Origin: Alphaproteobacteria bacterium
GTDB lineage: Bacteria > Pseudomonadota > Alphaproteobacteria > Rs-D84
Length of the DNA: 64,000 nt
Reading direction: 5' to 3'
NCBI GenBank assembly: GCA_029059055.1
Contig: JAIDWS010000035.1
Location: 8,670-72,669 of the forward strand
This document shows positions 10,722-46,069 of this stretch, in pieces. The notes under the pieces are model-generated. The model was given only the letters and a program-made list of their open reading frames with translations. It was not told the DNA's origin and did not search any database. Every line of letters begins with the position of its first letter. Position 1 is the stretch's first letter. A program made the position numbers and the translations under genes.

Positions 10722-10724
10722 TTT

Positions 10725-11663: not shown

Positions 11664-11752
11664 AACTTTTTCTCCATACTTATTTGACTATTATAGTCTG
11701 GCCGATAATAACTTGCAATATTAAAATCCAGCGAATAAGATATAAGGAATAC

Positions 11753-11828
11753 GTCCCCATAGTTCAATTGGATAGAACAAATTCCTCCTAAGAATTAAAT
11801 ACAGGTTCGATTCCTGTTGGGGATACCA
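11753..11828 (+). tRNA. tRNA-Arg (anticodon CCT)
   Basis: Manual cloverleaf: acceptor GTCCCCA/TGGGGAT, D-arm GTTC..GAAC, anticodon loop CTCCTAA, T-arm ACAGG-TTCGATT-CCTGT, CCA end; 76 nt. Confidence 0.85.
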
Positions 11829-11845
11829 TAAAAATCGCGTATAAT

Positions 11846-12181
11846 GTGGACGTCATGAAAAATAAAGCTGTAAAGATTGGAATCATCGCATCGCTGTTGC
11901 CGCATGTGTTTTGTTGCGGATTGCCGATTGCGCTGTCGATTATCGGATTGATTGCGCCGGAATCTGCGCATCTGCATATTATTCCGCAATGGCTGGAACC
12001 GTGGCTGTTCGTGTTTTCGGCCGGGATGTTGGGTCTGTCGTGGGTGTTGGTGGTGCGTGATTGCCGATGCGAATGCGACCATTGTCACGGCAATGACGGC
12101 CACAAACCCCAGAAATTTATTTTGGGCATCATCACCCTGATTTTTATCACCAGTGTGATTTTACATCTGATGTCGCATTAA
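11846..12181 (+). CDS. Small three-TM membrane protein with a CC motif in TM1 and a cytoplasmic CRCECDHC cluster (MerT-like metal transporter topology)
   Basis: HVFCCGLPIALSII in TM1 and a Cys cluster between TM2 and TM3 mirror MerT. Confidence 0.45.
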   Translation: MDVMKNKAVKIGIIASLLPHVFCCGLPIALSIIGLIAPESAHLHIIPQWLEPWLFVFSAGMLGLSWVLVVRDCRCECDHCHGNDGHKPQKFILGIITLIFITSVILHLMSH

Positions 12182-12182
12182 A

Positions 12183-12212
12183 ACAGAAACGGGGCCGGGC
12201 CCCGTTTTTTTA
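12183..12212. terminator. Bidirectional terminator (acggggccgggccccgt)
   Basis: GC hairpin with a T-run between convergent genes. Confidence 0.5.
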
Positions 12213-12752
12213 TTTGCCGATTTCGACCAACCATTCCTGTATCACGGGGCCTGCGTTTGCCGCATCCCCACCACGAATGGCGATGGCGCGCCCGTGCATG
12301 GAATTCGGGGTTAATTTTTCCACATCGGCGGCAATGGTGCCGGTACCGCTGCCTTCGTGGGTGTTAAACGGGATGACGGTTTTACCCGACAAATCCGCCG
12401 TGGTTAAAAACGTATGTACCGGACCGGCCATCGTCCCCCACCAACATGGCGTGCCGACAAATACCGTATCGTATTGCGTTAAATCCGGTATGGCGTTAAT
12501 CGCCGGGAAAGTACCGTTTTCAATTTCTGATTTGGCAACGACGGTGGCCGAACGATATTCGGCGGGATAATGGTTTGCGTCGGCCGTCGTGATTTCAAAG
12601 ATATCGGCATCGGTGGCCGATTTAATCAATTCCGCCACCGTCGCCGTATTACCCGAACGTGAATAATACGCGACCAGACTTTTGGCATCCGCCGCCCCGC
12701 ACAGTGCGACACCCGCGCACAATCCCCAGAATAAATGTTTCATGTTTTCCAT
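12210..12752 (-). CDS. Flavodoxin-like fold protein with N-terminal signal peptide
   Basis: SLVAYYSRSGNTATVAELI (flavodoxin T/SxTGxT-like loop). Hydrophobic N-terminus ...GLCAGVALCGAADA. Confidence 0.6.
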   Translation of the reverse strand: MENMKHLFWGLCAGVALCGAADAKSLVAYYSRSGNTATVAELIKSATDADIFEITTADANHYPAEYRSATVVAKSEIENGTFPAINAIPDLTQYDTVFVGTPCWWGTMAGPVHTFLTTADLSGKTVIPFNTHEGSGTGTIAADVEKLTPNSMHGRAIAIRGGDAANAGPVIQEWLVEIGK

Positions 12753-12765
12753 CCTGTTGTTAAGT

Positions 12766-13716
12766 TTATTTTTCGTCCAAATTGACCAATTCGTATGTCC
12801 GCACCCCCAGGCCGATTTCCGCCGCCGATTCCAACGTATGCAATCCGTTGCGTTCTGCGATGCGTTGCATCAGCGCGGCATTACCGTCGGCACGCGACAC
12901 CATGTCGATGGCGGCCTGGTCGATGGCAACGGGGTCGGTCGAAACCAAAATACCAATATCATGGATATCGGGTTCGGCCGGGTTGCCATTGCAATCACAA
13001 TCGATACTGATGCGGTTTAATACATTTATGTAAATGATGTTATCGCGCCCCAAATGGTCGACAACAGATTTGCCGGCGTCCGCCATTGATTCCAGAAATG
13101 CCGTTTGTTCCCCGCCCCACGGGTTGGTTTTACTGGTCCCGCCGCTGTGAATCCAAGATTTACCCATGCGACTGCCCAGGCCGATGGAAATATTCTTTAT
13201 CGCGCCGCCATATCCGGCCATGGCATGTCCCTTGAAATGCGACAGAATGATATAAGAATCATAATCATCAAAATGCGAACCGACATAATTTTCGGTTAAC
13301 ACTTTGCCCCCGTGAACCGGCAAAGCCATATCGCCATCTTCGTCCTGGATATCGACGGGCGCAACGTCAAAGAATCCGTGTTCTTTGACAACGCGCCAGT
13401 GATTGGCACTGTTGGCGCGCGCGCCGTCATATGCCGTATTGCATTCCACAATCGTCCCATCGACCGATTGAATCAAATCCCGCACCAAATCGGGGCGCAA
13501 ATAATTACTGCGCGGCGGTTCCCCCGTCGTCATTTTGACGGCGACGCGTCCCCGCGGCGTCCATCCGGCCGCACGGTATGCCCGGACCAGTCCCGCCGCC
13601 GAAATATCTGATGTAAAATAAACTTTTGGCATGGTTTCCCCCCTTGGTTTAAAAAATAAAAACAGCGCGGCTGAAACAATCACAATTCCCCCCGCAACAT
13701 ATGCCCAGATTTTCAT
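12766..13716 (-). CDS. DUF362 domain protein; second in-frame start with a strong SD at about 13632 (MPKVYF...)
   Basis: MPKVYFTSD...VAVKMTTGEPP matches the DUF362 N-terminal pattern. Both starts are preceded by GGGGGG-type SD sequences. Confidence 0.55.
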   Translation of the reverse strand: MKIWAYVAGGIVIVSAALFLFFKPRGETMPKVYFTSDISAAGLVRAYRAAGWTPRGRVAVKMTTGEPPRSNYLRPDLVRDLIQSVDGTIVECNTAYDGARANSANHWRVVKEHGFFDVAPVDIQDEDGDMALPVHGGKVLTENYVGSHFDDYDSYIILSHFKGHAMAGYGGAIKNISIGLGSRMGKSWIHSGGTSKTNPWGGEQTAFLESMADAGKSVVDHLGRDNIIYINVLNRISIDCDCNGNPAEPDIHDIGILVSTDPVAIDQAAIDMVSRADGNAALMQRIAERNGLHTLESAAEIGLGVRTYELVNLDEK

Positions 13717-13738
13717 CGGTTCACCCCCCTTTTTTTAT

Positions 13739-13785
13739 CTTGACTTTATTACTATAAATCTTAGACTTGTGTCTAAGTCAAGGAG
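13739..13785 (-). promoter_or_regulatory. MerR-type regulated promoter: on the minus strand TTGACT, a 19-bp spacer containing the dyad cttagac-N4-gtctaag, then TATAGT; divergent from merR
   Basis: The 19-bp spacer with a centred palindrome is the hallmark of MerR-family activated promoters. It drives the DUF362-flavodoxin operon. Confidence 0.6.
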
Positions 13786-13790
13786 TTTTT

Positions 13791-14198
13791 ATGCGTATCG
13801 GCGAAGTGGCCAAAATAACTGGTCTGACGGAACACACATTACGGTTTTATGAAAAATCGGGCCTGATGCCCGACACGGCCAAGCGGCGCGGTGGTATTCG
13901 TGATTATTGCGACACGGACATTGAACGGTTGGGGATTATTGAATGCCTGAAAAAGACGGGCATGCCCCTGCGCGATATCAAGACATTCATGCAATGGTGC
14001 GCCCAGGGCGACGCCAGCATTGAACAGCGTTACCAAATGTTTATCCAGCGCAAAGAAATTGTCCGGCAACAAATGGCGGAATTGAAAAAGACCATGTCGG
14101 TCATCGATTTTAAAATCAAATATTACGGTGACGCGCGCGATGCAGGCACGCTGGACATTTACAAAGATAAAAAGATTAAGAAGCCTGTATTTTTTTAA
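13791..14198 (+). CDS. MerR family transcriptional regulator with no metal-binding Cys pair
   Basis: MRIGEVAKITGLTEHTLRFYEKSGL (MerR HTH); SD AAGGAG; coiled-coil dimerisation region. Confidence 0.8.
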   Translation: MRIGEVAKITGLTEHTLRFYEKSGLMPDTAKRRGGIRDYCDTDIERLGIIECLKKTGMPLRDIKTFMQWCAQGDASIEQRYQMFIQRKEIVRQQMAELKKTMSVIDFKIKYYGDARDAGTLDIYKDKKIKKPVFF

Positions 14199-14223
14199 CC
14201 CATGCGCACCCATTTAAAAATGG

Positions 14224-14252
14224 GTGACATTTTCCAAAACATGCGATATAAT
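14224..14252 (+). promoter_or_regulatory. Sigma70-like promoter GTGACA-17-TATAAT for leader B
   Basis: Hexamers at 14224-14229 and 14247-14252. Confidence 0.5.
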
Positions 14253-14258
14253 ATGCCC

Positions 14259-14437
14259 CGTGGTGGCCGATGGCACCATGGGGCTTTACAACCCGTTGAA
14301 CGCGTCCGCGTGACGATAAACATTCCAACCCATTTGGTTGGAGTGTGGTGAATACATCGAATAAACCGCGCAATTCGTTCAATTGTTGTAAAACTCCAAC
14401 CACCTGAAAAAAATCCGGTGGTTTTATTTTTTGTTCG
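14259..14437 (+). ncRNA. Structured 5' leader / attenuator RNA B (paralogue of 9956-10125), with a possible 13-codon leader ORF at 14307-14348 and a terminator at 14394-14437
   Basis: Same conserved blocks and the same hairpin competition as leader A. Confidence 0.55.
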
Positions 14438-14446
14438 GGGTTAACA

Positions 14447-15235
14447 ATGAAATTTGTTTTATGGACAATTGCGTGCGTGATGGGGATGCCGGCGGTGGCA
14501 TGGGGCGTATGCGATGGGGGAATGTATTTAAACGGCACCACATGCGAAAAATGCGTCGATGGGTATTATTGTCCCGGTGACGACACGCAACATCCATGTC
14601 CGACGGACACGACCGATTGGTACGGATTCGTATCAACACTGTACCCGGTGGACCGGGTGACGCAACAATCATGGCTGATGTCGTGGGACCCCGGTTCATC
14701 GACAAACGGGGCCATCTGGCCGGCGCATTGTTTCGCAGGTGTCTTTATATCCAGCCCATATGGGGAACTGTATATCGAAAGCTGGTATAACGGCACCAAT
14801 TACTGGAACGGCGAACAGGCGTTTTTGTGGTACCAGGCCAACCCCGGATATTATTTGGCCCAATATGTCGGGACGACATATCATGTCTGGTACCGATACG
14901 CCCGGCCATGCACAAATCTGCCGGAACATGCACATTATACCGGCGCCGGCACGCCCGATTCCGCCGATGGCACCATTCGGGATGCAAACGATTGCCCGTG
15001 GGAATGCGATGACGGATACGGCAATCATGACGGGGTGTGCGTGCCGTTGTGCGACGGCGTCAATCGGTTAAAGACCGGCAACGGTCGAACATTTAATTTA
15101 TACCCCATGGCATATACCACGCCGTCATTGCGCATTGAATATGGCGGCAAAACATGCTATGGCGTGTTAAAGTCGGGCGCGGCCGCATCAATCAATCTGC
15201 GATACAATAACCAAACGTATCACCTGTCTGACTAA
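14447..15235 (+). CDS. Secreted cysteine-rich protein (signal peptide; CEKCVDGYYCPG furin/TNFR-like Cys repeats; Trp/Tyr-rich core)
   Basis: Signal peptide MKFVLWTIACVMGMPAVAWG; Cys spacing reminiscent of eukaryotic Cys-rich repeats. Confidence 0.5.
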   Translation: MKFVLWTIACVMGMPAVAWGVCDGGMYLNGTTCEKCVDGYYCPGDDTQHPCPTDTTDWYGFVSTLYPVDRVTQQSWLMSWDPGSSTNGAIWPAHCFAGVFISSPYGELYIESWYNGTNYWNGEQAFLWYQANPGYYLAQYVGTTYHVWYRYARPCTNLPEHAHYTGAGTPDSADGTIRDANDCPWECDDGYGNHDGVCVPLCDGVNRLKTGNGRTFNLYPMAYTTPSLRIEYGGKTCYGVLKSGAAASINLRYNNQTYHLSD

Positions 15236-15308
15236 GGCTGGATTTTCATCCTGTATATTTTGCGCCATCACTGTGATACAATATCCCCAGAAACAGAAAG
15301 GTTATATC

Positions 15309-15476
15309 ATGCCCCTGAAACAAGGTTGCACCCGCAAAACCATATCCGAAAACATCCGCGCCGAAGTCCATGCCGGCCGCCCCCAGAAACAGGCGGTGGC
15401 GATTGCCCTGTCGATTGCGGACAAAAACGCATACAAATGCCGCCCCCGCAAACCATCCCTGAAAAAGGCGAAATAA
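15309..15476 (+). CDS. Small basic conserved protein (55 aa; KQAVAIALSIA motif)
   Basis: Resembles a widespread small-protein family with a ...RKQA(I/V)AIALS.A... core. The ORF extends in-frame back to 15273. Confidence 0.35.
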   Translation: MPLKQGCTRKTISENIRAEVHAGRPQKQAVAIALSIADKNAYKCRPRKPSLKKAK

Positions 15477-15559
15477 AATCCCCCGCAACCGCCGTTTTTT
15501 TGTTAAATCACTTTGTCCCTTTTGGCATCCCATAACGCGCACAATGCCCTATTCCTATT

Positions 15560-15680
15560 ACTGGATTGCTTCACTGCGTTCGCAATGACAATGGTGTTTA
15601 ATTTCCCGGCTACTTCATCCCCTTTGTCATTGCGAAGGAGTGAAACGACTGCGGCAATCCAGTGAATAAAATCCCCGCCA
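15560..15680. repeat. Imperfect-palindromic repeat element, copy 2
   Basis: Same termini (actggattgc/gcaatccagt) and core (cgcaatgacaa/ttgtcattgcga) as 9781-9900. Confidence 0.7.
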
Positions 15681-15695
15681 TGGGCGGGGCGCAAA

Positions 15696-15727
15696 CAAAA
15701 AATCCCCCGATTGGGGGGATTTTTATT
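15696..15727. terminator. Terminator hairpin aaaaaatcccccgattggggggattttt downstream of plsX
   Basis: A-run, 7-bp GC stem, T-run. Confidence 0.5.
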
Positions 15728-16790
15728 CTTCGGCGTGGATTAATTCGGCCTTAATCGGTGCCAATGCTTCCACATGCGCGCTGATTTTATGATACACGTC
15801 GGATTTGGTTAAATCCAGCGCACTGCGTATTGCATTGGCAAATGCCAACGCATCACTGTTGCCGTGCGTTTTAATCGCAAACCCACGCAATCCCAAAAAC
15901 ATCGCCCCGGCATACGAACGCGGGTCAATTTTATGTTTTAACCGCTTAAACACATGGACCAAGAAAAATGCCCCGATAACCGCCAACACGGATTTTTTCA
16001 GGTTTTCCATCAACACGCGCTTAATCAATTTGGCGGTACCTTCCACCGTTTTTAAAACGATGTTGCCGGTGAACCCGTCGGTCACGACAACCTGGACATT
16101 ACCGGCACTGATATCGGTTCCTTCGACAAATCCGATGTATTCATACGGTAATTCATCCTTGTGCGCCATCAGCAATTTGTTCAACCGTTGCAGGGTTTCG
16201 TTCCCCTTGGTATCTTCTTCGCCGATGTTTAACACGCCCAATTTCGGGTGCGGCATATGACCGATAACGTCGGCATACACACTGCCCAGGACGGCAAAAT
16301 CGAACAGATTTTCGGCATCACATTGAACATTCGCCCCCAAATCCAGCATGACCACACGGCTGTCACCGCCACCGGACGGCAACATGGTTGTAATCGCCGG
16401 GCGCGAAATCCCATCGACCGTTTTCAATGCCAATTTAGACAGGGCCATCAACACACCGGTATTTCCCGCACTGATGACGGCGGTTGAATTTCCTTCGCGG
16501 ACATCCTTGATCGCCATATACATGGACGTATTTTGCGCATGACGGATGACATCGCGCACCTTGTCTGTGCCACGAATGACATCGGGGGCATGAATGATTT
16601 CGCAATTACGCGCGACACGCGGGTATTTGTTCATCATCCTGCGCAGACGCTTTTCATCACCGAACACACGGAAAAACGCCATGTCTTCGCCATTTTGATA
16701 CAGGAACTGGTTCATTCCCCCCAGAACGGCGCCGGGTGCCTTGTCCCCGCCCATTGCGTCAATTGAAATAATTTGTTTTTCACCGGACAT
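15723..16790 (-). CDS. plsX: Phosphate acyltransferase PlsX
   Basis: ISIDAMGGDKAPGAVLGG N-terminus; full-length PlsX-like. Confidence 0.9.
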   Translation of the reverse strand: MSGEKQIISIDAMGGDKAPGAVLGGMNQFLYQNGEDMAFFRVFGDEKRLRRMMNKYPRVARNCEIIHAPDVIRGTDKVRDVIRHAQNTSMYMAIKDVREGNSTAVISAGNTGVLMALSKLALKTVDGISRPAITTMLPSGGGDSRVVMLDLGANVQCDAENLFDFAVLGSVYADVIGHMPHPKLGVLNIGEEDTKGNETLQRLNKLLMAHKDELPYEYIGFVEGTDISAGNVQVVVTDGFTGNIVLKTVEGTAKLIKRVLMENLKKSVLAVIGAFFLVHVFKRLKHKIDPRSYAGAMFLGLRGFAIKTHGNSDALAFANAIRSALDLTKSDVYHKISAHVEALAPIKAELIHAEE

Positions 16791-16859
16791 GATACATAAA
16801 AGAAGGCAGAAGGCACAATTGAATGAACCGCCCCTTCTGCCATTATATCTTGTTACAGA

Positions 16860-17009
16860 TTATTTAGACCCGCACGCTGCGCAGACGTGATGCGGGCGTT
16901 TCTTTTCGCCGCATGCCTTGCAAACGGTGGACGGCATGATTGTCAGCGCATCATGCGAACGACGCTGTGCGGAACGTGCTTTGCTTGTTTTACTTTTTGG
17001 CGTTGCCAT
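16860..17009 (-). CDS. rpmF: 50S ribosomal protein L32 (49 aa; not in the ORF track because it is shorter than 60 aa)
   Basis: Manual translation: MATPKSKTSKARSAQRRSHDALTIMPSTVCKACGEKKRPHHVCAACGSK*. Canonical position upstream of plsX. Confidence 0.85.
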   Translation of the reverse strand: MATPKSKTSKARSAQRRSHDALTIMPSTVCKACGEKKRPHHVCAACGSK

Positions 17010-17076
17010 TTTACAATCCTTTTATAATTTACAGTTAGACATTTTATTAAAATCTTGCGGATATGCAAGAAAAACT

Positions 17077-17475
17077 TTAATCCGATATGACCTGGGCGAC
17101 AAACATGCCGTGATTGTGCATTAATCCGACAACGGCGCTGTGGTCATCCAGTCCCAGATAAAATTTATATCCCTGTGATTCCAGGTCTGCGATGGTTGCG
17201 ACCTTGAATTCTGCGGTTGTGCCGGGGTAATCGTGCGGTTTGCAGAACACCCGTTTTTTGATATTCGGCAATAAATTTTGGATATGGGCTTCGACCTTTT
17301 GCTGGCCCATGGCCCATCGCCCTGTGATAAAGACGATGACAAAATCCCGCCCCAGCGTTTCCAAGACCCGAATCATATTTTCGTTTGGTTCACCGAAACG
17401 GTCATAATTTGCAATCGCGAATTTTTTATTCACGACGCCATCAATATCACAAAAGATTGCCGGAATTTCTGTCAT
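17077..17475 (-). CDS. HAD-superfamily hydrolase-like protein
   Basis: N-terminal FCDIDGVVN (DxDG motif I). Confidence 0.45.
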   Translation of the reverse strand: MTEIPAIFCDIDGVVNKKFAIANYDRFGEPNENMIRVLETLGRDFVIVFITGRWAMGQQKVEAHIQNLLPNIKKRVFCKPHDYPGTTAEFKVATIADLESQGYKFYLGLDDHSAVVGLMHNHGMFVAQVISD

Positions 17476-17545
17476 TGTTTTTCAGACCAATTGCGCCCGG
17501 TGTCCCATGATTGGGATGCCGGGCGCGGTTGGTAATTCACAGCCC

Positions 17546-20500
17546 CTAGATATCCAACAGCTGCTGCTGGACATTGCCTTCGCGGGCCAGCTTTTCCGCT
17601 TTTTCTTCTTCTTTGGCGATTTCGCGTACGCGACGGACATATGCCCCGGTTCCAATCGGAATCAAACGACCCACAATCAGGTTTTCGTTAATCCCGACCA
17701 GTTTATCGGTTGCCCCGCTGATGGCGGCATCCACCAACACTTTGGTCGTCTGTTGGAACGACGCGTTGGAAATGAACGAACGGGATGTCAACGACGCACG
17801 GGTCAAACCGACCAAGACCTGGGACGCTTCGGCGGCTTTGCCACCGTCGCGGATGACGCGCGCGTTTTCTTCTTCGAAATCGACGCGGTCGACCACCTGG
17901 CCCATCAAGAATCCCGTATCACCCGGATTGGTGATTTCCACACGGCGTGTCATTTCACGGATCAAGATTTCGATATGCTTGTCGTTGATGATAACGCCCT
18001 GCAAGCGGTAAACCTGCTGAATCTGTTCGACCATAAATGTTGCCAAGGCTTTCTGGCCCAAGATGCGCAGAATATCCTGGGGCACGGGGTCGCCATCGAC
18101 CAGCTTTTCGGCCTTTTTCACCGTATCGCCGCTGCGCACCAACAGGTTTGTTCCCTTTGGCACGGCGTATTCGACCGGTGCGGTACCGTCATCCGGTTCA
18201 ATACGGATGATGATTTTGGATTTGGCATCTTCCAGTTCGATGGTTCCATCCACTTCGGCCAGCAATGCCGGGTTTGTCGGACGGCGGACTTCCAACAGCG
18301 CTTCGACGCGCGGCAGCCCACCCGTAATGTCGCTGGTACGTTTGGTCTGGACCGGAATACGTGCCAAGATGTCCCCGGCGGCAACGCGGTCGCCATTGGC
18401 CACGTTCAGCACCGAATAAATCGGCAACAGATATTCCGCGATTTTCTTTCCCCCCAGGGAAACAACTTCGCCCTTGTCATTGACCAGTGTAACCGCCGGC
18501 TTCAATGCCTTTTTGGTGTTTGTTTTCCAATTGATAACCTTGCGCGAAACGATACCGGTCACGGCGTCGACTTCTTCTTGGAACGAAACGTTTTCAATCA
18601 AATCGTTAAAGTTCACAATACCGTCTTTTTCCGCGATAATGGTGTTGGAATACGGATCCCATTCGGCCACTTTGGCGCCTTTTTCAACGGTGTCACCGTC
18701 ATTGACAATCAACATGGACGCATACGGCAACGCCGCAGTGAACAGTTTTTCACCCTTGTCATCGACGACGGACAATTCGCCATTACGGGACAGAACCACA
18801 ACACGTCCCACCGAATTTTTAATCGTGTTAACACCCGACAATTTGATGGTACCGGACACGGGCACTTCGATAAAGTGGCTTTCCGCGCCCCCGGACGCAA
18901 TCCCCCCAATGTGGAAGGTTCGCAGTGTCAACTGGGTCCCCGGTTCACCGATGGATTGACCGGCGATAACACCGACGGCTTCGCCGACGTGGGCCAAACT
19001 GCCGCGGGACAAATCCATACCGTAACATTTCGCACACAGACCGTCACTGCAACATGTCAGTACGCTGCGGACATCAACGGACGGGATACCGGCTTCGTTA
19101 ATCTTTTTCGCGGCGGATTTTGTGACCAATTCACCGGCGGGAACGATAACTTCCTTGGAAATGGGATGAACGATGTCATGCGCCGCCGTACGTCCCAAAA
19201 CAACATCACCCAACGGCACGGACAGTGCGCTGCCCTGGTACACGGGTTTGGCCGTGATGTATTCGGTTGTGCCGCAATCATGTTCGGTGATGACGGTGTT
19301 CTGCGCCAATTCCACCAAACGACGGGTCAAATACCCCGCTTCGGCGGTTTTCAACGCGGTATCCGACATCCCCTTACGCGCACCGTGGGTGGACGTAAAG
19401 TATTCGGACATGGTCAGACCTTCCTTAAAGTTCGAAATAATCGGAACTTCGATAATGGAACCGTCGGGCTTCTGCATCATACCACGCATACCGGCCAACT
19501 GCTGAATCTGTCCTTTGGACCCACGGGCGCCGGACAACGCCATCATCAACACGGAATTCCAATTGTCGCCTTCGGTCTTGCCCAACGCGGCATATGCCAA
19601 ATCCCCCAGTTTATCGGTGGTTTTCTGCCACAAGTCAATCAACTTGTTATATCTTTCGCCATGGGACAGCAACCCATTCTGGTACTGCTGTTCGATTTCT
19701 TCGGCGGCTTTTTCCGCATCGGCAATCATGTCTTTCTTTTCTTCTGGGATGACGATATCGTCAAAACCGATGGAAATACCACTGCGGGCGGCCTGTTCAA
19801 AGCCGGTGTTTTTCAACGCGTCCGCCAACAAAATCATATCTTTGTCGCCGCAACGTTCGTATGTTGTCGCCAACAAGTTTTTGATTTCTTTTTTCGAAAA
19901 AACTTTATTGACCAAATCGAACGGCATATTGTCTTTCTTGGGCAACAATTCACCCAGAATCATACGACCGGCGGTTGTCTGATATGTTTTCCCGTCGATA
20001 CGCGCGATAATCGGCGTATGCAATGTGATGGTCTTGTTTTCCAGGGCCAATTTCACTTCGTCCATGTTGGCAAAGCGCGGCGATTTTTCCGAATGTTCGC
20101 CGTTAATCAGCGAAATGTAGTAAATCCCCAATACCATGTCCTGGGACAATTCAATCATGGGTTCACCGTTCGCCGGCGACAACACGTTGTTCGACGACAG
20201 CATCAATGTGCGCGCTTCCAATTGCGCTTCCAGCGAAATCGGCACGTGCACGGACATCTGGTCACCGTCAAAGTCCGCATTAAATCCTTTACACACCAAC
20301 GGGTGCAGACGGATGGCCTTGCCTTCGATTAAGACCGGTTCAAACGCCAACAATGACAAACGGTGCAATGTCGGCGCACGGTTCAACAGAACCGGATGCT
20401 GATAAATCACTTTTTCCAGGATTTCCCAAACGATTTCTTCGCCGTTTTCGACCATTTTGCGTGCGGTCTTTAACGTGTTGGCATAATCACCCGCCAACAG

Positions 20501-29716: not shown

Positions 29717-30376
29717 GTGGCAGACCGCATAGAGCCGCCGATTTTACTGTCCAGACTGATGACATTCGTCTTTGCCGCCGCGTTGGTGGTGGTGGTCGTA
29801 TTGGTGGTCACACTGGCCAAGATGTTCCCGCTGAACCGGCCCCAGATATTCTTTTTAACGACCCAGCCGCGCGCCGATTTGGAAATCCGGCTGTATCCGA
29901 TGCCGCCCAGCGACGAAAACGTTGATATTTACAAGCGCAGCTTTATCAAGGAATATATCAAGGCCCGCAATGAAATCATCCCGAACGTCGGCGTAATGCG
30001 CCGCAAATGGTCAAATACCGACGACGGCATCGTGAACATGTGGTCAACACCGGATGTGTATGCCACCATGACCCAGACGGATTTATGGACCGCGTACATG
30101 AACGATGTGCCGGACACAGAATTCTATTGCCCGGTGGAATTTGCCCCCAACGCCATTGCCCCGCGTTCAGAAAACACATATGCGGTCAGTTTTACGTATT
30201 TTTGCACAAATAATAATGGACAGACCGATAAAAAAGATTATACAATTGTAATCAGATTGGAATCTGACGAAAACCCGACGATTAAGTGGGGGGACCGCCT
30301 GAATAACCCGTTGGGGATTCGTGTGGCCGAATATACGGTTGAATCCGGAAACGGTGACCCGTTGGACTTTAAATAA
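29717..30376 (+). CDS. virB8: VirB8/TrbF-like bitopic inner-membrane protein (short cytoplasmic tail, one TM, periplasmic domain with C-terminal NPLG motif); GTG start
   Basis: Topology and C-terminal ...RLNNPLGIRVAEYTV (NPxG motif of the VirB8/NTF2-like family). First gene of a 3-gene operon with VirB9/VirB10 homologues. Confidence 0.5.
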   Translation: MADRIEPPILLSRLMTFVFAAALVVVVVLVVTLAKMFPLNRPQIFFLTTQPRADLEIRLYPMPPSDENVDIYKRSFIKEYIKARNEIIPNVGVMRRKWSNTDDGIVNMWSTPDVYATMTQTDLWTAYMNDVPDTEFYCPVEFAPNAIAPRSENTYAVSFTYFCTNNNGQTDKKDYTIVIRLESDENPTIKWGDRLNNPLGIRVAEYTVESGNGDPLDFK

Positions 30377-30415: not shown

Positions 30416-31954
30416 ATGACTTTTTCAAAAGCATTGAAGTTAAACGTATCCGTAATTTGCCTGGGGGCGTTGTGCTGTGCGGCACCGGCCGGGGCGGCGA
30501 CCGAATACGGGATTCAATCGGCATGGGACAATCCCAACGCCAACATGGCCGCCGGCAGTATTAAGCCCGGATATGCCCAGTTGTCTTGGTCCGCGGGCAA
30601 TGTTTTGCCGATTAAATTGCGCAATGGTATGGTGACAATGGTCACGTTGCCCAACGGCGAACAGATTGCCGACGCCCAGATTGGTAACGCCGGTCTGTTT
30701 GATATCCAGGCGACCCAGGGTGAACGCACCATGTTCATCAGCCCCATGCCGGACAATCTGGGGTCGGATACGAACCTGATTGTGATTGGCAAATCGGGCA
30801 ATGTTTATACTTTTTATCTGCGCAGCGAACCGTCGAATTCCAGTGAAATCACCCATTCCCAGGTGGACGTCGTTCTGGACGGCAACGCCAGTCTGCCGAT
30901 GGCATCGGCCACCGGCACCACATCGGGCGGCATGAATTCTATATTCAAGAAAAAGGCGTCATCGACCGCATCCACTGTTGGTGTTGACGGCGAAGATTAC
31001 GGTTGGATTAAATCGATGAAAATCGACCCGTCGGAATTTCGTTTCGATTTGGATATTTTCGTACCGAACCCGGATGATTACGTCATTGCGCCCGAACGCG
31101 TCTGGCGCGACCGCATCTTTACATACATTGATTTCGGGGACAAAGTCATCGCCATGACCCAGCGTCCGGTTGTATCCCTGTTGGTCGAAGGTGGCGAATC
31201 CCCGGTCGGATTCCGCACCGATGGCGAAGACGGTCGTCTGTTAATTGTCGAAGCGGTTGGCGACATGGTTCTGCGCAGTGGCCAACGCATCGTTTGTATT
31301 AAAAAGCGTGAAAAACCGTTCTTGATTGCGGATACGGCGTCTGTTATGGCATTGGCCGAAGCGAACGTTGCCCAATCCATGTTGTCGGGTCAATCGCTGA
31401 ACAATATTGCGTATAACGCAGACCTGGCCGCGATGAGTGGGTCTGTCAACAATTACACCACGACACCAATGTTTTCGTATAATGGCGCCGCGCCCCAGCA
31501 GATGAACGCCGGCGTATACGGCGGATATTATGCACCCACGGGTTATAATGCACCGGCACCGACATCGGGTGGTGTGACCATGTTGCCGACCGAACGCAAC
31601 ACGGCGGGGGCATATTTGCCGCAAACAAACATTCCGTTAATCACCAGCAACCAAACCGGCGTTGCGGTGGAATTGAAATCCGACACATCGGTCAAGGCTT
31701 TGAATGATTACTGGACGGGCTTGCTGGCGAAATTCAGCGGCGAAGACGGCCAGGGTCTGTTGACACCGTACAAAGACAGCGTGTTCTTTGCGGTCGATGA
31801 ACAGGGTGTCGGCGACCTGGGGGCGGATTCATCAACGGCGCGCCTGTACCGTTTGCGCATCGGGCCGATGTCCGACATTGACACCGCCCAGCGTCTGTGT
31901 GACCAGATGTTGAAATTCAGCGGCACCAGTTGCCACGTTGTGCGCATTCAGTAA
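30416..31954 (+). CDS. virB9: VirB9/TrbG/CagX-like protein with a low-complexity linker and a C-terminal SPOR-like domain
   Basis: Signal peptide; N-terminal domain ...TNLIVIGKSGNVYTFYLRS; C-terminal beta-sandwich ...GDMVLRSGQRIVCIKKRE. Terminal RLRIGPMSDIDTAQRLCDQMLKFSGTSCHVVRIQ resembles the FtsN SPOR domain (RVVIGPVKGKENADSTLNRLKMAGHTNCIRL). Confidence 0.7.
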   Translation: MTFSKALKLNVSVICLGALCCAAPAGAATEYGIQSAWDNPNANMAAGSIKPGYAQLSWSAGNVLPIKLRNGMVTMVTLPNGEQIADAQIGNAGLFDIQATQGERTMFISPMPDNLGSDTNLIVIGKSGNVYTFYLRSEPSNSSEITHSQVDVVLDGNASLPMASATGTTSGGMNSIFKKKASSTASTVGVDGEDYGWIKSMKIDPSEFRFDLDIFVPNPDDYVIAPERVWRDRIFTYIDFGDKVIAMTQRPVVSLLVEGGESPVGFRTDGEDGRLLIVEAVGDMVLRSGQRIVCIKKREKPFLIADTASVMALAEANVAQSMLSGQSLNNIAYNADLAAMSGSVNNYTTTPMFSYNGAAPQQMNAGVYGGYYAPTGYNAPAPTSGGVTMLPTERNTAGAYLPQTNIPLITSNQTGVAVELKSDTSVKALNDYWTGLLAKFSGEDGQGLLTPYKDSVFFAVDEQGVGDLGADSSTARLYRLRIGPMSDIDTAQRLCDQMLKFSGTSCHVVRIQ

Positions 31955-32000: not shown

Positions 32001-34436
32001 ATGAATAAGATAGCCAAACAATTTTCCGACCTGCGTCAGACAACGCCAAAGCATATCCAGTGGTTACTGTTGGTGGCGGCGTTTATCGTTGTGTTGATTT
32101 TGTTGACACTGTTGCTGCGGGGGCGCGCGGATAAATCCGACGCCGTAACATTGCCCGACGATGAAAATTTGACATTGACGATTGACCCCGACAGCGTGGA
32201 TTGGGCCACCACCACCGTCGGCACGAAAAAGACGCAAAAAATCACCATATCCACCACCGGTGCGGTAAAAATTGTGGCGGTACGTCTGTCCCGCGAAGTG
32301 GCGGGATTATCCACCCCCAAAACGACATGCACCAACATGGGTGAAATCAATGACAAGATTTCATGTACAATCAACCTGACCTATGAACCGACGGTCCCGA
32401 TGGATACAACGGGGGTATCGCTGTTTGTGGATTGGCGTGGCGTGGACGCCCCCGACGGCATGACGCGCGCGGAAAAAATCCCGATGGCGCTGGGGGCGGT
32501 GTCGCCCACCCCGGTGATTCAACCGGCGACAAAACCGGAACCGGCGATCATTGAACCGACCCCGGAACCGACGCCTGTGGTCATGCCGGAACCCGAACCC
32601 AAACGTTCCGAACCGAAACAGGAAATCCAACGTGACATCGCAACCATCGCGCCCCCTGTGCCGATGATTGATTCCAAATCGGAACCGACACCGACGGTGA
32701 CCAGTGCGCCGGCCATCGCCACCCCGGTTTCAGACAACGCCCCCATCCCGACGGATGGCTGTTCGGATTTTTCATTCCCGGGATATAACACATCGGGTCA
32801 ACAGATTGGGTGGATAAAACCGGACCGCGGTGCGTATTATTTCTATCCATTTTCGGACCGCGAATGCAAAAACGCCACCGGCAAATATAATCCCGACAAC
32901 GGTATTATCACGGCCATCAACAATCCGGCCCAGAAAATCGGAACAGACGCCGAACATATCGGATACACAACAATATCCAATGGTTCGGTACCGCAATTGT
33001 CGAACCCGGCGGACACCCGAAATGTTAATCGGGCGCGCCAACTGACCAGTGCTGAATTGACCCAATCCATGGGCGGTGGCATGGGCGCGGCCCGCGTTAA
33101 TTTGAACCCGGCCCCGGCATCGGATATTTTATATACGACATCCGACACAAATGTTATTCCATCAACCCAGCCGTATGACCGGTCGTTCATCCTGCGCCAA
33201 TATAAACCGATTCCGGCCACCATCGTATCTGATGTGCGCGCCGACGCCACATTGATTAATGGCCAACAATTCTTGCCTGTGCGCGCAACGGTTGACCGCA
33301 ATGTGTATTCGGACAACGGCCGTACGGTTATTATCCCGACCGGGACATTGATGTTGGGGTATGTCACCGGCGAAGTGCCCGGCCCATACAAGACCATTGG
33401 TCGCATGGAAATCAAATGGTACCAGTTTGTTTTGCCCAACGGCGTTGAATTTAATTTCGGCGGCGCGACCGATCCGTTTTCCGGTGATGCCCAGGGGCGT
33501 ATTGGCGTTCCCGGCCGGGGCAGTACGGATTATCTGGAACAATTTGTGATGCCCATGCTGACGGCGATTGTACCGGCGGCGGTCAACATGATTGCGCCCA
33601 TTGCGGATAAATTTGTGAACCAAATTGATTTGGATAACAATACGGTTGTGCAATCCGGCACGGTCCGTTCATCCGAATTGGCGAAAAATGAAATCATCAC
33701 GGCCTGGAACCAGGTGGCCCAGAAATTAATGGTCGACATGATGGACAACACCACACCGCCATTTACCATTGCGGCCGGGACACGCATTACGGTTTATTCG
33801 CCCCAGGATTTGGCGGTGGTCTGCATGGATGATTCCAAGAAATGTTCGTTACAACATTTAATGCAAAAATCCCCGACGGGTAACTCTGCGCGTGCGACCC
33901 CATCGCCTAATATCACATATAATCCCAATGACGGTTCATGGGTTGGCCAGGCACGTTCATTTAACATGGATCAATATTGCAAACAAAATGCGAACAAGGT
34001 TTGGGAAGTAGACAGTTCGCTGGCGGCACAAATCACCCAAGATTCCGGGTATTCATACAGCACCGTGGTTGCGTATTGCCAATCCAAGAATTACCAGGCC
34101 ATTAATAATGCCAGACAAGATGCCCTGTTCCAGAACCAGCAACAGACATTTGGCCAGAATGTAACATCCAGTTCCACAAATCTGACGGGGATATCTGGTG
34201 ATACCACATATAACCAGGAAATCTTGGGCTTGAAATATAACGACAATGGCACTATACAAAATCCGTTCCAGCAATTACCGGTTGAAACACCGCCGGCGCC
34301 CACCCTTACATGTGAAGATGGGACCAACCCGGATGCCAACGGTTGCTGTACCGGGGAAATCTATACCGACATGGGCGACCAGGGATTTAACTGTTGCCCG
34401 GAAACCGGTGGCGATTGTTTCCCGCCGATATTATAA
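32001..34436 (+). CDS. virB10: VirB10/TrbI-like protein (N-terminal TM, Pro-rich linker, VirB10 beta-barrel domain) with a ~250-aa Cys-rich C-terminal extension
   Basis: Pro-rich PTPEPTPVVMPEPEPK. VirB10 domain: IPATIVSDVRADATL..VRATVDRNVYSDNGRTVIIPTGTLMLGYV..RMEIKWYQFVLPNGVEFNF..GDAQGRIGV..TIAAGTRITVYSPQDLAV. Extension ends CCTGEIYTDMGDQGFNCCPETGGDCFPPIL. Confidence 0.75.
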   Translation: MNKIAKQFSDLRQTTPKHIQWLLLVAAFIVVLILLTLLLRGRADKSDAVTLPDDENLTLTIDPDSVDWATTTVGTKKTQKITISTTGAVKIVAVRLSREVAGLSTPKTTCTNMGEINDKISCTINLTYEPTVPMDTTGVSLFVDWRGVDAPDGMTRAEKIPMALGAVSPTPVIQPATKPEPAIIEPTPEPTPVVMPEPEPKRSEPKQEIQRDIATIAPPVPMIDSKSEPTPTVTSAPAIATPVSDNAPIPTDGCSDFSFPGYNTSGQQIGWIKPDRGAYYFYPFSDRECKNATGKYNPDNGIITAINNPAQKIGTDAEHIGYTTISNGSVPQLSNPADTRNVNRARQLTSAELTQSMGGGMGAARVNLNPAPASDILYTTSDTNVIPSTQPYDRSFILRQYKPIPATIVSDVRADATLINGQQFLPVRATVDRNVYSDNGRTVIIPTGTLMLGYVTGEVPGPYKTIGRMEIKWYQFVLPNGVEFNFGGATDPFSGDAQGRIGVPGRGSTDYLEQFVMPMLTAIVPAAVNMIAPIADKFVNQIDLDNNTVVQSGTVRSSELAKNEIITAWNQVAQKLMVDMMDNTTPPFTIAAGTRITVYSPQDLAVVCMDDSKKCSLQHLMQKSPTGNSARATPSPNITYNPNDGSWVGQARSFNMDQYCKQNANKVWEVDSSLAAQITQDSGYSYSTVVAYCQSKNYQAINNARQDALFQNQQQTFGQNVTSSSTNLTGISGDTTYNQEILGLKYNDNGTIQNPFQQLPVETPPAPTLTCEDGTNPDANGCCTGEIYTDMGDQGFNCCPETGGDCFPPIL

Positions 34437-34696: not shown

Positions 34697-35044
34697 ATGA
34701 CACAACAAACCATGCAGACATCCATCCCGGCCGAAAAGTTTCAAAGTGCGGAACAACTGTGGTTTTGGTTTTTGTACGCGCGCAGCGTACGCAATGGGTT
34801 TGTCCGGGGCCACATGTCGTCCCAGCGTCGCGTATGCGAATTGCTGGACGTGGAAACATTGGTAACGAAACTGTATTTGGCGGGTCGGTTATCCGACGCG
34901 CAACTGGCCGTCATGAAAGAATTTGGCGACCGGCGCCGCGCCCCGCACCAGCACATCTGGGCAGAAAATAAAAAGGCTGAATTATGGCGCACCGCCATGT
35001 CGGTTTTAAATGCTGCGGCGACCGCACGTGGTTGGATTGAATAA
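34697..35044 (+). CDS. Hypothetical protein (115 aa)
   Basis: RBS caaggagag; no recognisable motif. Confidence 0.35.
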   Translation: MTQQTMQTSIPAEKFQSAEQLWFWFLYARSVRNGFVRGHMSSQRRVCELLDVETLVTKLYLAGRLSDAQLAVMKEFGDRRRAPHQHIWAENKKAELWRTAMSVLNAAATARGWIE

Positions 35045-40890: not shown

Positions 40891-42003
40891 TTAATGAAAG
40901 ATAAAACAATCGATACCGTTGGCCGATGCGTTGGCTTTCAAATTGGCCGCCGCACCGTCTGATAAATTATTCACGCGCACCCGGAACATTCCGTTCGGCG
41001 CCGGTTCAATTGTCGGCGTGACATTCAACGCCGCACGCACGCGCGCAATCTGGGTCTGGGCCGCGTCCCGCGATGCAAATGCCCCGAATTGAACACCCGC
41101 ATTTCCCGGCGTATGCGTTGTCGGGGGCGTCGTCACAGTTGATGCACGCACCGGCACATTTTGCGTTGGCGCCGCGGTTTTTGTGGATTGAACCGTTACC
41201 GGCGCGGTGCCGTTGTCCAACATGGCGAACCCCTTGTTCAACATGTTTGTCGACACAGCCGCCCGAACATCTTTGTTTTCCGCCCCCAACACCACCGATA
41301 TCAGACGACGGTTTCCCCGCTTGGCCGTGGCGACCAATGAATATTTGGATTTGTTGGTAAATCCGGTCTTCATCCCGTCACAGCCCGGATACGTTCCCAA
41401 CAACCGGTTACCGTTGGTATATGTTTTTCCGTTATACGTCCACGATTTGATGCCGAAATATTTCCAATATTGCGGAAAATGTTTATACACCGCCATCGAC
41501 AATAATGCGATGTCCCGGGCGGTTGACATCTGGTCATCGTTGGGCAACCCGGATGAATTTTCAAAGTGCGTTTTGGCCAATCCGATTTCGGTGGCGACGC
41601 GCGTCATCAGTGATGCAAAGTTCCCTTCTTTGCCACCCTTTAAATTTTCGGCCAACACGCGTGCGACATCATTCGCACTTAACACTGCGACGGCCTTAAT
41701 CGCGTCTTCGACGGTGATTTTGCTGCCCGCGGCCAGCCCCAGTTTAACCGGCGACGCGTTTGCCGCCGATTGCGACACAATCAGATAATCATCCAGATGT
41801 AACCGTCCATGTTCCAACGCATCAAACGTCAGATACAACGTCATAATTTTGGTAAGACTTGCCGGGTAATTCAAATCGCCCGCATTTTCAGAATACAGCA
41901 CACGCCCCGTATCCATATCGGCAACCAATGCCGCGCGATATCCACCGGCATTTGCCACCCCACACAGGCATATTAATAAAAAGGATACGATGCCAAATCT
42001 CAT
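40891..42003 (-). CDS. D-alanyl-D-alanine carboxypeptidase (PBP5/DacC-like) with a C-terminal SPOR domain
   Basis: SLTKIMT (SxxK), SGN, KTG motifs; C-terminal ...FRVRVNNLSDGAAANLKANASANGIDCFIFH. Confidence 0.8.
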   Translation of the reverse strand: MRFGIVSFLLICLCGVANAGGYRAALVADMDTGRVLYSENAGDLNYPASLTKIMTLYLTFDALEHGRLHLDDYLIVSQSAANASPVKLGLAAGSKITVEDAIKAVAVLSANDVARVLAENLKGGKEGNFASLMTRVATEIGLAKTHFENSSGLPNDDQMSTARDIALLSMAVYKHFPQYWKYFGIKSWTYNGKTYTNGNRLLGTYPGCDGMKTGFTNKSKYSLVATAKRGNRRLISVVLGAENKDVRAAVSTNMLNKGFAMLDNGTAPVTVQSTKTAAPTQNVPVRASTVTTPPTTHTPGNAGVQFGAFASRDAAQTQIARVRAALNVTPTIEPAPNGMFRVRVNNLSDGAAANLKANASANGIDCFIFH

Positions 42004-44077: not shown

Positions 44078-46069
44078 TTGCGAATGCGTGGTATAAATTC
44101 CTATACTCTATCCATGCGGGAATTTATCAGCGAACAGTTTGCAAACCGGTTCTTGTGGACGCCATTCTTGATGGCGTTTGGTGCGGCGTTGTATTTTGCC
44201 ATGGGCACCGAACCCGTCATTCCCGGGATGGGCATTATGGCTGCGATACTGTTTGCGGCCGCGTTTGTTTCGCGCATACCGCTGATTCTGCGCGGGATGT
44301 TTCTGTTCGCATTTGGATTCTGCTATGCGGCGGCATTTACACATGTTATCGACACACCGCAAATTTCACGCAATTTGCGTGACCTGGATATTTCCGGAAC
44401 AATCACCAAAATTGAATATACAGATACCAAGACGCGTGTCCATATTCGCATCCCGGCCAATTTGATTAACCGCGATATGCCGCAACACCGCCACGCAAAC
44501 ATCCGCGTATCAATGTCTGAAATGCCAACGCCCATCCATATCGGCGATATCATTGATGCGCGCGTTTCACTGTTTCGACCGGCCGGCGCATATATGCCCG
44601 AAACATTTGATTATGCACGTTGGACGTATTTCAACAGATTGTCCGCAACCGGTTTTGTTCAAAATTATACCGTTACCCCAACCCAGACCCGCAATATCAA
44701 CACGATGCGTGATGCGATTCACAACCATGCGCATTCGTTTTTGTCCGACACACTGGTTCTGGGATATAAATCGGCATTACCGGATGACGACCGCACCATT
44801 TGGACGACAAACGGTGTGGGTCATGTTTGGTCCATCAGTGGATTTCACATGACATTGGTGTCGGGATGGTTATTTGCGTTTTTCTATTTAATCTTTCGCA
44901 TGATATCACCATTGACCCGGCGCGTACCGGCCCGCATCCCCGCCATGATTTGCGCATGGGTGGGATTGCTGTTTTATCTGTTTCTGTCGGGTGGCGGAAT
45001 TGCAACCATCCGTGCATTTATGATGACCAGTTTAATCTTTGCGGCATTTGTCAGTGGCCGCGAAGCCCTGTCGATGCGAAACATATGCCTGGCATTTTGT
45101 CTGATATTTCTGATAAATCCGCACTATGTCATGCAACCGGGATTTCAATTATCATTTTCCGCCGTGTTTGGATTGATTTGGTATTTTCGCGACACCACGT
45201 ATCAAAAACGCACATTGCCCCAGAAAATCAGACGCGCCATTTGTGCCGCGGCCATGACATCGGTCATCGCCACGATTTTCACCATGCCGTTTGTCGCCGC
45301 CCACTTTTATCAAATACCGACATATTCACTGATTGGCAACCTGATACTGTTGCCGGTGTTTTCCGTGATGATTATGCCACTGGTCATGGTGGGGACGTTA
45401 ACCGCAACATTGGGATGGACCGGCCCGTTGGTTTTGGCGGAAATGATTTACAACGTTGTGTTGGTGGTGGCGACCCGGATTGCGTCATTGCCGTTTGCCA
45501 CCATATTGACACCGCATGTGCCAAACAGTGCGATTGTATTCATGATATTGGGATTTTTGTGTCTGATGTTTATCCGCGCATCACGCCCCAGAATCAATTA
45601 CATATTATGCGCGACATGTATCGGTGTCGGCATGGGTATCACCGCATTAACACCGCGCCCGATATTCTATGCAACGGCCGACCATGAATTGATTGGATTT
45701 GTGGCGGCGGATGGTAAACTGGAATTTAACAAATCGCGCGCATCCAATCATTTCTTTGCGTTCGACACGTGGAAGCAAATAAATATCGAACCGCCCCGCA
45801 CACCAAACCGTCGGCGTAAATGCGTACATGGTGTTTGCAAATTTGAAACTGAAAATTGGATACTGGCATATACCCAGAAATTTGTACCGACGATGAATAA
45901 TATTGTTCAATTTTGTCGCGACCCGTCAATTGATTACATCGTGTCATATTTTGATATCGATGCACCGCACTGTAACCATAAAATTCTGCGGGGCGGATTT
46001 GCGATTTATAAATCCGGTCGCGTGCGCCATGTGACTATGCGTCGTCCGTGGCATAATCCGCGCCGATAA
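44078..46069 (+). CDS. comEC: ComEC/Rec2-family DNA-internalisation membrane protein (no C-terminal beta-lactamase domain)
   Basis: Polytopic; ...VGHVWSISGFHMTLVSGWLF... competence-domain signature. Confidence 0.7.
   Translation: MRMRGINSYTLSMREFISEQFANRFLWTPFLMAFGAALYFAMGTEPVIPGMGIMAAILFAAAFVSRIPLILRGMFLFAFGFCYAAAFTHVIDTPQISRNLRDLDISGTITKIEYTDTKTRVHIRIPANLINRDMPQHRHANIRVSMSEMPTPIHIGDIIDARVSLFRPAGAYMPETFDYARWTYFNRLSATGFVQNYTVTPTQTRNINTMRDAIHNHAHSFLSDTLVLGYKSALPDDDRTIWTTNGVGHVWSISGFHMTLVSGWLFAFFYLIFRMISPLTRRVPARIPAMICAWVGLLFYLFLSGGGIATIRAFMMTSLIFAAFVSGREALSMRNICLAFCLIFLINPHYVMQPGFQLSFSAVFGLIWYFRDTTYQKRTLPQKIRRAICAAAMTSVIATIFTMPFVAAHFYQIPTYSLIGNLILLPVFSVMIMPLVMVGTLTATLGWTGPLVLAEMIYNVVLVVATRIASLPFATILTPHVPNSAIVFMILGFLCLMFIRASRPRINYILCATCIGVGMGITALTPRPIFYATADHELIGFVAADGKLEFNKSRASNHFFAFDTWKQINIEPPRTPNRRRKCVHGVCKFETENWILAYTQKFVPTMNNIVQFCRDPSIDYIVSYFDIDAPHCNHKILRGGFAIYKSGRVRHVTMRRPWHNPRR

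Follow-up and report, generated by a model that had tools for sequence, protein, structure and literature searches.

Our analysis of a 64,000-nucleotide stretch of alphaproteobacterial DNA (contig JAIDWS010000035.1, lineage Rs-D84; hereafter, the window) points to a secretion-channel subunit fused to a domain of a cell wall-binding type. The gene, here called virB9-SPOR, lies at positions 30416 to 31954 of the plus strand and encodes 512 amino acids plus a stop codon in a single uninterrupted reading frame. We are highly confident of the architecture alone, namely, a genuine VirB9 of the type IV secretion system (T4SS) followed by a C-terminal SPOR-fold domain. As to the role, the reading that we favor, with a good deal less assurance, is that the protein is the VirB9 of an rvh-like P-type T4SS outer-membrane core in Candidatus Enterousia, and that the SPOR tail tethers this core to peptidoglycan. 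Enterousia belongs to the order Rs-D84, and its genomes of less than about 1 Mb are devoid of the tricarboxylic acid cycle and respiratory chains (PMC12306168). An earlier note on this DNA, based on the letters alone, had proposed the fusion from positions 31320 to 31954, which correspond to residues 302 to 512 and the stop codon. The strings quoted there are present in the protein, GQRIVCIKKREK at residues 289 to 300 and RLYRLRIGPMSDIDTAQRLCDQMLKFSGTSCHVVRIQ at residues 476 to 512.

The larger part of the protein is a VirB9 homologue, as that note had proposed. Residues 55 to 297 (30578 to 31306, plus strand) match the VirB9/CagX family (Pfam PF03524) with an E-value of 1.4e-21 and 77.7 bits, above the cut-off of 34.2, and they are laid out as an N-terminal domain, a variable stretch (residues ~146 to 195), and a C-terminal beta-sandwich. 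The flanking genes on the same strand agree with this assignment. A virB8 homologue of 219 amino acids (29717 to 30376; Pfam VirB8, 1.3e-12, 48.5 bits) stands directly 5′ of virB9-SPOR, and a virB10 homologue of 811 amino acids (32001 to 34436; Pfam TrbI, 1.1e-17, residues 400 to 604) stands directly 3′ of it. The VirB8-VirB9-VirB10 gene order is common to all Enterousia loci examined. The match to the NCBIfam VirB9 model TIGR02781 is weak (52.4 bits, under the equivalog cut-off of 217.7), and the protein is therefore a divergent VirB9, not an Agrobacterium-type equivalog. Residues 1 to 27 (30416 to 30496, plus strand; identity 53%), with the hydrophobic core VSVICLGALCCAAPAGA, were read by eye as a predicted signal peptide, which would direct the export of the protein to the periplasm.

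Between the two domains lies a low-complexity linker, residues ~341 to 412 (31436 to 31651, plus strand), rich in Ala, Asn, Gly, Thr, Tyr, and Pro and recognizable by its composition, low identity, and insertions and deletions. The earlier description of an Ala/Gly/Asn-rich linker holds for residues 321 to 412, where Ala (12), Asn (11), Gly (10), and Thr (10) are prominent among the 92 positions. Across 120 Enterousia homologues, the mean identity is 99 to 100% over residues 196 to 320 (the VirB9 C-terminal domain plus ~20 residues after it), falls to 37 to 58%, with insertions and deletions, over linker residues 341 to 400, and rises again to 85% over the final 100 residues. This pattern of a conserved domain, a variable linker, and another conserved domain indicates two functional domains on a spacer and excludes a frameshift or assembly artefact.

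The final domain comprises residues 413 to 512 (31652 to 31951, plus strand), and Pfam, AlphaFold2, Foldseek, and hhalign all relate it to SPOR. When the tail alone is searched, the Pfam SPOR family (PF05036) matches with 23.6 to 23.8 bits, above the gathering cut-off of 21. Of 30 diverse homologous tails, drawn from clusters 17 to 63% identical to the tail of the window, 21 match this family, the best at 32.9 bits (E-value 8.3e-8), and no rival family competes for them. Furthermore, stand-alone fragments of the tail carry the NCBI name 'SPOR domain-containing protein.' AlphaFold2 predicted a β-α-β-β-α-β fold from a shallow Enterousia alignment (predicted local distance difference test score, 79.3; predicted template modeling score, 0.73) and from the diverse 30-sequence alignment (86.8 and 0.77, respectively). 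Both models place β1 at residues 415 to 423, α1 at 426 to 440, β2 at 456 to 462, β3 at 476 to 485, α2 at 488 to 502, and β4 at 507 to 511. With either model, the top three Foldseek matches in the PDB were the SPOR domains of RlpA (6i09 and 6i05) and DedD (6ztg), at a probability of 0.99 to 1.00; the RlpA matches had E-values of 9.5e-4 to 3.8e-3, a probability of 1.00, and target-normalized template modeling scores of 0.61 to 0.69. An hhalign comparison of the tail family with the SPOR domains of FtsN, CwlC, and a PBP5-like protein of the window gave an E-value of 3.5e-5 and a probability of 72%, pairing LYRLRIGP…LCDQMLKFSG with WNRVVIGP…LNRLKMAG. Thus, the Pfam match, the predicted structure, and the top Foldseek matches all agree with the proposed SPOR tail. 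The terminal domain had been taken to span about 65 residues; it is in fact about 100 residues long, as β1 and α1 lie upstream of the part recognized at that time, and its α1-β2 and β2-β3 loops are longer than those of classical SPOR domains.

One other similarity was considered and set aside. A phmmer search of the PDB with the single sequence of the tail (31622 to 31951, plus strand) returned about 40 antibody heavy-chain variable domains over about 90 residues, with a best E-value of 0.0036. We judge these to be chance matches of a 'DTAxxxC'-like motif against thousands of chains: they are absent from the profile search, and AlphaFold predicts an α/β fold and not an immunoglobulin fold. The matches also advise caution with E-values, as antibodies in the PDB are highly redundant.

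The fusion is shared by many relatives. With each species represented by one genome, a scan found 258 loci that encode a relative, and in the best 80 of these, residues 1 to 512 of the query (10 to 512 in the worst case) are covered at 74 to 97% identity. The source metagenome-assembled genomes (MAGs) are named Candidatus Enterousia, uncultured Alphaproteobacteria, or 'uncultured Rickettsiales,' and they come from the guts of humans, mice, ruminants, horses, and chickens. One full-length homologue lies on a closed chromosome of 958,618 bp. Besides, more than 1000 protein clusters at 90% identity contain a full-length homologue, 75 to 97% identical to the window protein, the 120 listed being mostly 505 to 530 amino acids long. 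The precomputed Pfam pair PF03524 and PF05036 is present on some homologues, and so the architecture is already implicit in databases. When 1.84 billion representatives at 50% identity were searched exhaustively with HMMER, 514 VirB9 relatives were obtained. Among the 150 best of the representatives, the tail profile finds the tail at the C terminus of 29, more rarely with increasing distance; among the 20 best with a complete VirB9 C-terminal domain, 17 have it. The same fusion, sought in relatives, is thus present in distant lineages, which keep it at 37 to 50% identity and at a locus GC content of 36 to 64%. A profile of the tail alignment run against a 5.8-billion-protein set found only short Enterousia-type fragments and no new lineages. 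The fused protein belongs to the conserved core in Candidatus Enterousia and in uncultured Alphaproteobacteria of the gut that are related to it.

A further group of long VirB9 homologues (P0159, P0160, P0161, P0166, P0169, P0171, P0195, P0200, P0205, and others), at 33 to 37% identity, also ends in ~100 residues with a C-x10-11-C and an xGPY/F motif. These tails have no Pfam SPOR match and were not counted as SPOR fusions; they may be a more divergent version of the same tail.

Several relatives with a fused VirB9 have it among other T4SS genes. The full-length VirB9 of one locus (L085, protein P0127) scores 59.6 bits with CagX and 25.0 bits with SPOR, and its gene order is VirB4, five open reading frames (ORFs) without a Pfam match, VirB8, a VirB7-like lipoprotein of 66 amino acids, a further VirB8, VirB9-SPOR, a 2717-amino acid TrbI protein, and VirB11. 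A core of this type, with a 2274-amino acid VirB10 and VirB11, is found in L084 (VirB9 P0130); L086 (P0150) has VirB9, VirB10, VirB11, and VirD4 in a row, and L087 (P0124) has an isolated VirB9-VirB10 pair. A homology search with VirB4 led to another abundant alphaproteobacterial lineage of the human gut, not Enterousia, with a contiguous T4SS. There, TrbC-type pilins, a 96-amino acid ORF at the VirB3 position, VirB4, four ORFs, VirB8, a small ORF, and another VirB8 precede a VirB9 of 512 to 530 amino acids, whose N terminus is nearest to the tail-bearing representatives (the sequence covers the N-terminal part). The succession VirB8, small lipoprotein, VirB8, and VirB9, with 4 to 5 ORFs without a Pfam match between VirB4 and VirB8, is common to L084, L085, L088, and L108. 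The ORFs at the VirB6 positions of the relatives' loci have no detectable VirB6 domain. The proteins at the VirB10 position of L084 (2274 amino acids, 4115 to 10939) and L085 (2717 amino acids, 11611 to 19764) are giants, in which repeated beta-flower (PF21784/PF21785) and DUF3659 modules precede the C-terminal TrbI domain. In the human-gut lineage (L088 to L097 and L108 to L111, ~1 to 7700, minus strand), the T4SS stands back to back with a cluster of secretin, TcpQ, PilO, and T2SSE ATPase genes, similar to a type IV pilus or type II secretion system.

In Enterousia, VirB8 is single, and VirB8, VirB9, and VirB10 form an isolated islet. The rvh system has duplicated VirB8, VirB4, and VirB9, several VirB6 paralogues, and genes in scattered islets (PMC4676284). 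The gene order of the relatives and the scattering of islets seem to recall this Rickettsiales system.

How would the tail act in such a machine? In T4SSs, the N-terminal domains of VirB9 form the I-layer, and its C-terminal domains, together with VirB7, form the outer ring of the O-layer, with at least 14 copies of each (PMC12857230). Since the C-terminal end of VirB9 is in the O-layer and is followed by a long spacer, the tail would come out right below the outer membrane, with peptidoglycan possibly within its reach. A flexible linker of ~70 to 110 residues would carry the periplasmic SPOR-fold domain, probably stapled by a disulfide of its own between α2 and β4, beyond the VirB9 C-terminal domain. 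By analogy also in copy number, the tails could then hang as a ring of flexible tethers that hold on to peptidoglycan by its glycan backbone, and such a ring would fix, stabilize, or position the channel where the wall is crossed. Glycan that amidases have stripped of its peptides is enriched at the septum; if the tail still prefers it, as SPOR domains do, assembly would be biased to division sites and hence to the new poles; septal targeting of the tail is thus something that we infer. The window encodes a second SPOR fusion, which the earlier note had also picked out: a PBP5-like DD-carboxypeptidase (40891 to 42003, minus strand; Peptidase_S11, 3.6e-58) with a C-terminal SPOR domain of 30.9 bits. 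The β1 motif of this domain, GVQFGAF, has the canonical Gln and Phe, both of which are missing in the VirB9 tail. The presence of a canonical SPOR domain on this enzyme in the same genome indicates that SPOR-type wall recognition is in use in the organism.

The ligand site sets the VirB9 tail apart from other SPOR domains. In the crystal structure of RlpA with glycan, Gln270 (equivalent to FtsN Q251 and DamX Q351) is the one highly conserved side chain in contact with the glycan; it forms hydrogen bonds with the lactyl carboxylate of N-acetylmuramic acid (MurNAc) and with N-acetylglucosamine's N-acetyl group, and in FtsN and DamX it is needed for septal localization (PMC6895207). Phe274 of RlpA stacks on MurNAc, and a basic patch (FtsN R285; RlpA R302, R309, and R311) holds the MurNAc carboxylate (PMC6895207). 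The conserved Gln and Phe occupy positions 8 and 12 of the Pfam SPOR hidden Markov model. In this register, Glu419 (codon at 31670 to 31672, plus strand) takes the place of the glycan-contacting Gln. The register comes from three homologous tails that match Pfam SPOR nearly end to end, and the β1-α1 spacing in the models agrees with it. The only Gln found at the position, in a family member (protein 9) with the motif IAVQLGSA, falls exactly in the column of residue 419. Basic residues are conserved among the 30 representatives: R479 (Arg in 21, His in 6), R481 (Arg in 25), and R510 (Arg in 21). As hhalign pairs LYRLRIGP with WNRVVIGP of FtsN, R479 corresponds to FtsN R285. At the level of sequence, then, the basic patch is retained in the tail and the pair of Gln and Phe is lost.

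The close parallel with FtsN drawn in the earlier note stands for the fold and for the aligned β3 motif with R479; it fails at the ligand site, where Gln is replaced by Glu419 and Phe is absent. Nor is the cysteine pair of FtsN shared. By the sequence of 1UTA, the FtsN cysteines lie in β1 (VQCGSF, C252) and β4 (NCIRL, C312), and the FtsN fragment quoted for the comparison had one Cys. In the tail, Leu420 of β1 stands at the position of C252, and only the β4 Cys has an equivalent. The two cysteines of the tail, Cys495 in α2 (31898 to 31900) and Cys506 in β4 (31931 to 31933), span 31898 to 31933 on the plus strand as a candidate periplasmic disulfide and are kept without exception in the 30 diverse tails. 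Such invariance makes it very likely that the tail family has an α2-β4 disulfide of its own and not that of FtsN. A Trp in α1 is likewise invariant across the tail family.

Several observations weigh against a SPOR-tethered T4SS, and from them the rival explanations arise. When the whole protein is searched, the Pfam SPOR score is 20.5 bits at residues 472 to 510, just below the cut-off of 21, and the match in the window protein covers only the C-terminal half of the model. The Foldseek E-values are modest (~1e-3), with many generic ferredoxin-like folds close behind (~1e-2), and a profile of the 30 tails found no SPOR chain among the PDB sequences. These points would suit a generic ferredoxin-like α/β domain with a superficial likeness to SPOR. 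We consider this quite improbable, as the tails that match a Pfam family match SPOR and nothing else, SPOR structures hold ranks 1 to 3 in both fold searches, the hhalign E-value is low, and the motifs x-E/Q-L-G-S and Y-R-L-R-I-G-P are in register with the SPOR consensus. The null profile search is uninformative, because the canonical PBP5-like SPOR domain of the window also barely retrieves PDB SPOR chains by sequence; such a result is expected, as identity between SPOR domains is under 20% (PMC6895207). Nothing was found in favor of an artefact, of assembly or frameshift, joining VirB9 to a separate SPOR gene, and this explanation has practically no probability left, since the same ORF recurs in the protein clusters, in the loci of independent assemblies, and in the closed circular MAG, and distant lineages share the architecture. 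A more serious difficulty is the ligand site. Position 419 is acidic in 28 of 30 representatives (Glu in 21, Asp in 7; Gln and Val in one each), and position 423, Asp in this protein, is mostly Gly, Asp, or Asn, with no Phe among the 30. With a carboxylate in place of Gln, the canonical contact to the lactyl carboxylate is unlikely, and with both residues replaced, canonical binding of denuded glycan is a plausible proposal and no established property; the ligand of the tail may be bound more weakly, or differently, or may be a modified glycan.

The tail could therefore be a SPOR fold whose glycan binding has been lost or altered, either a protein-protein module within the machine, for instance docking the long extensions of VirB10 or VirB6-like proteins, or a reader of modified wall, for instance of N-deacetylated sugars whose amine would pair with Glu. 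Besides the replacements at the two most conserved ligand-site positions, the invariant Cys pair and the α1 Trp mark a distinct subfamily, and the partner VirB10 is unusually elaborate, both here and in the relatives. We nevertheless think this possibility unlikely, though the least unlikely of the rivals, as the basic residues of β3 and β4 are kept, SPOR-glycan contacts are mostly main-chain (PMC6895207), one family member retains Gln, and a long disordered linker suits reaching a distant layer better than docking to a neighbor. The remaining difficulty concerns the machine itself: a search of the 64-kb window and of 83 Enterousia loci (±10 kb around virB9) detected no VirB4, VirB11, VirD4, VirB7, or VirB6, whether by Pfam, applied to another 30 ORFs of the window, or by tblastn with the relatives' VirB4, VirB6-position ORFs, VirB7-like protein, VirB11, and VirD4. 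The trio could then be a ComB-like DNA-uptake apparatus that works with ComEC, the SPOR tail anchoring the uptake pore. The NCBIfam ComB10 match on VirB10 (1.7e-13), the JGI label 'ComB9 competence protein' on a related protein, a ComEC-type gene (44078 to 46069, plus strand; Competence, 5.9e-54, and DUF4131) ~10 kb from the trio, and the nucleotide scavenging expected of a reduced genome (PMC12306168) all fit such an apparatus, as does the lack of VirB11 and VirD4 near the trio. However, the ComB10 match (50 bits) is far under its cut-off of 300 and below the score of NCBIfam T4SS_VirB10 (1e-16, also under its cut-off), the relatives with a fused VirB9 have VirB11, VirD4, and TrbC-type pilins, and ComEC is widespread and unlinked to the trio. 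A DNA-uptake role thus appears improbable, and we continue to favor a VirB9 of an rvh-like T4SS that is tethered to peptidoglycan by its tail. A more specific proposal, which we put forward only tentatively, is that a distinct SPOR subfamily has been recruited to the T4SS channel, either for delivery to the septum, which would leave machines at the new poles, or for reading a different wall mark, such as a de-N-acetylated or otherwise modified glycan.

The surroundings of the trio and the rest of the window offer further observations. Upstream of the trio is a block of rpoBC, rplLJAK, nusG, secE, and tRNA-Trp on the opposite strand, and yidC follows virB10 on the minus strand. The VirB10 homologue is unusually long, with a weak choice-of-anchor-D/ASH-like match at residues 58 to 132; its N-terminal half is long and Pro-rich, and its C-terminal extension (…CEDGTNPDANGCCTGEIYTDMGDQGFNCCPETGGDCFPPIL) is rich in Cys. 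Right after virB10, a 115-amino acid ORF without a family match (34697 to 35044, plus strand) sits where relatives have VirB11. At ~56000 to 60800, adjoining tRNA-Gln (55140 to 55213), the GC content falls from ~50% to 34 to 35%. The genes of this region encode a 378-amino acid ORF without a family match, an HNH-motif protein (57622 to 58881), an N6/N4 DNA methylase (58817 to 59557), and a C5 cytosine methylase (59550 to 60818), and it is probably an acquired restriction-modification island. A 552-amino acid protein (3524 to 5182, minus strand) matches a porin family, that of the Protochlamydia outer membrane protein, Pom (1e-10), which is unusual for an alphaproteobacterium.

What holds T4SSs in place in the cell wall, and what brings some of them to the poles, is only partly understood. 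To our knowledge, the anchoring solutions described so far are separate accessory proteins. A SPOR domain on VirB9, probably present in at least 14 copies per machine, would be a simple and testable anchoring mechanism. SPOR specificity, if retained, would add spatial information from the septum to this anchoring, and with it a mechanism for placing the machine from septum to pole. If the subfamily proposal is true, host-dependent gut alphaproteobacteria with tiny genomes would possess a built-in positioning of the T4SS that is encoded in the wall. Besides, the family-wide change from Gln to Glu offers a natural variant for probing the ligand specificity of SPOR domains, and a secretion system that is both conserved and anchored in a special way gives a clue to the dependence of Enterousia and its relatives on other cells.

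The earlier note knew of no description of a SPOR domain on VirB9, and our literature search likewise turned up none that combines the two. Publications that name both 'SPOR domain' and 'type IV secretion' are apparently unrelated to such a fusion by their titles and abstracts. The word 'SPOR' does not occur in a T4SS review of December 2025 (PMC12857230), and in the passages of the rvh paper (PMC4676284) retrieved with rvh terms only, no wall-binding domain on VirB9 was noticed.

Among known systems, canonical VirB9, TraO, and RvhB9 proteins of P-type T4SSs share with our protein the two-halved CagX/VirB9 domain and the VirB8-VirB9-VirB10 order. In contrast, they end soon after the C-terminal beta-sandwich. 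SPOR domains are carried by division proteins, by the outer-membrane lipoprotein RlpA, and by DD-carboxypeptidases. RlpA of Pseudomonas aeruginosa and Escherichia coli, the best structural match, is also associated with the outer membrane, from where its C-terminal SPOR domain reaches down to peptidoglycan. However, RlpA serves the division machinery as a lytic transglycosylase and is no subunit of a secretion channel, and it has Gln270 and Phe274 where the tail has Glu419 and Asp423. FtsN of E. coli (1UTA) resembles the tail in its β-α-β-β-α-β fold, the xRxxIGP motif of β3, the Cys at the start of β4, and the position of the SPOR domain after a long disordered linker. Yet FtsN is an inner-membrane activator of division, its disulfide joins C252 and C312 (β1 to β4), and it has Gln251 where the tail has Glu.

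Wall-binding parts are known from other machines, namely, DotK (OmpA-like) in the Dot/Icm system of Legionella, TsaP with its LysM domain at the type IV pilus secretin, TagL and TagN in type VI secretion, and GspA/ExeA in type II secretion. DotK is a component of the Dot/Icm core complex (PMC9371333). All of them resemble virB9-SPOR in bringing a wall-binding module to the outer-membrane part of a trans-envelope machine. They differ from it in using OmpA-like, LysM, or PG_binding_1 modules, usually on separate accessory proteins, whereas here a SPOR domain is fused to the channel subunit itself. That trans-envelope machines carry modules for wall binding is thus well known, and the new element appears to be a SPOR domain with an altered ligand site fused to VirB9.

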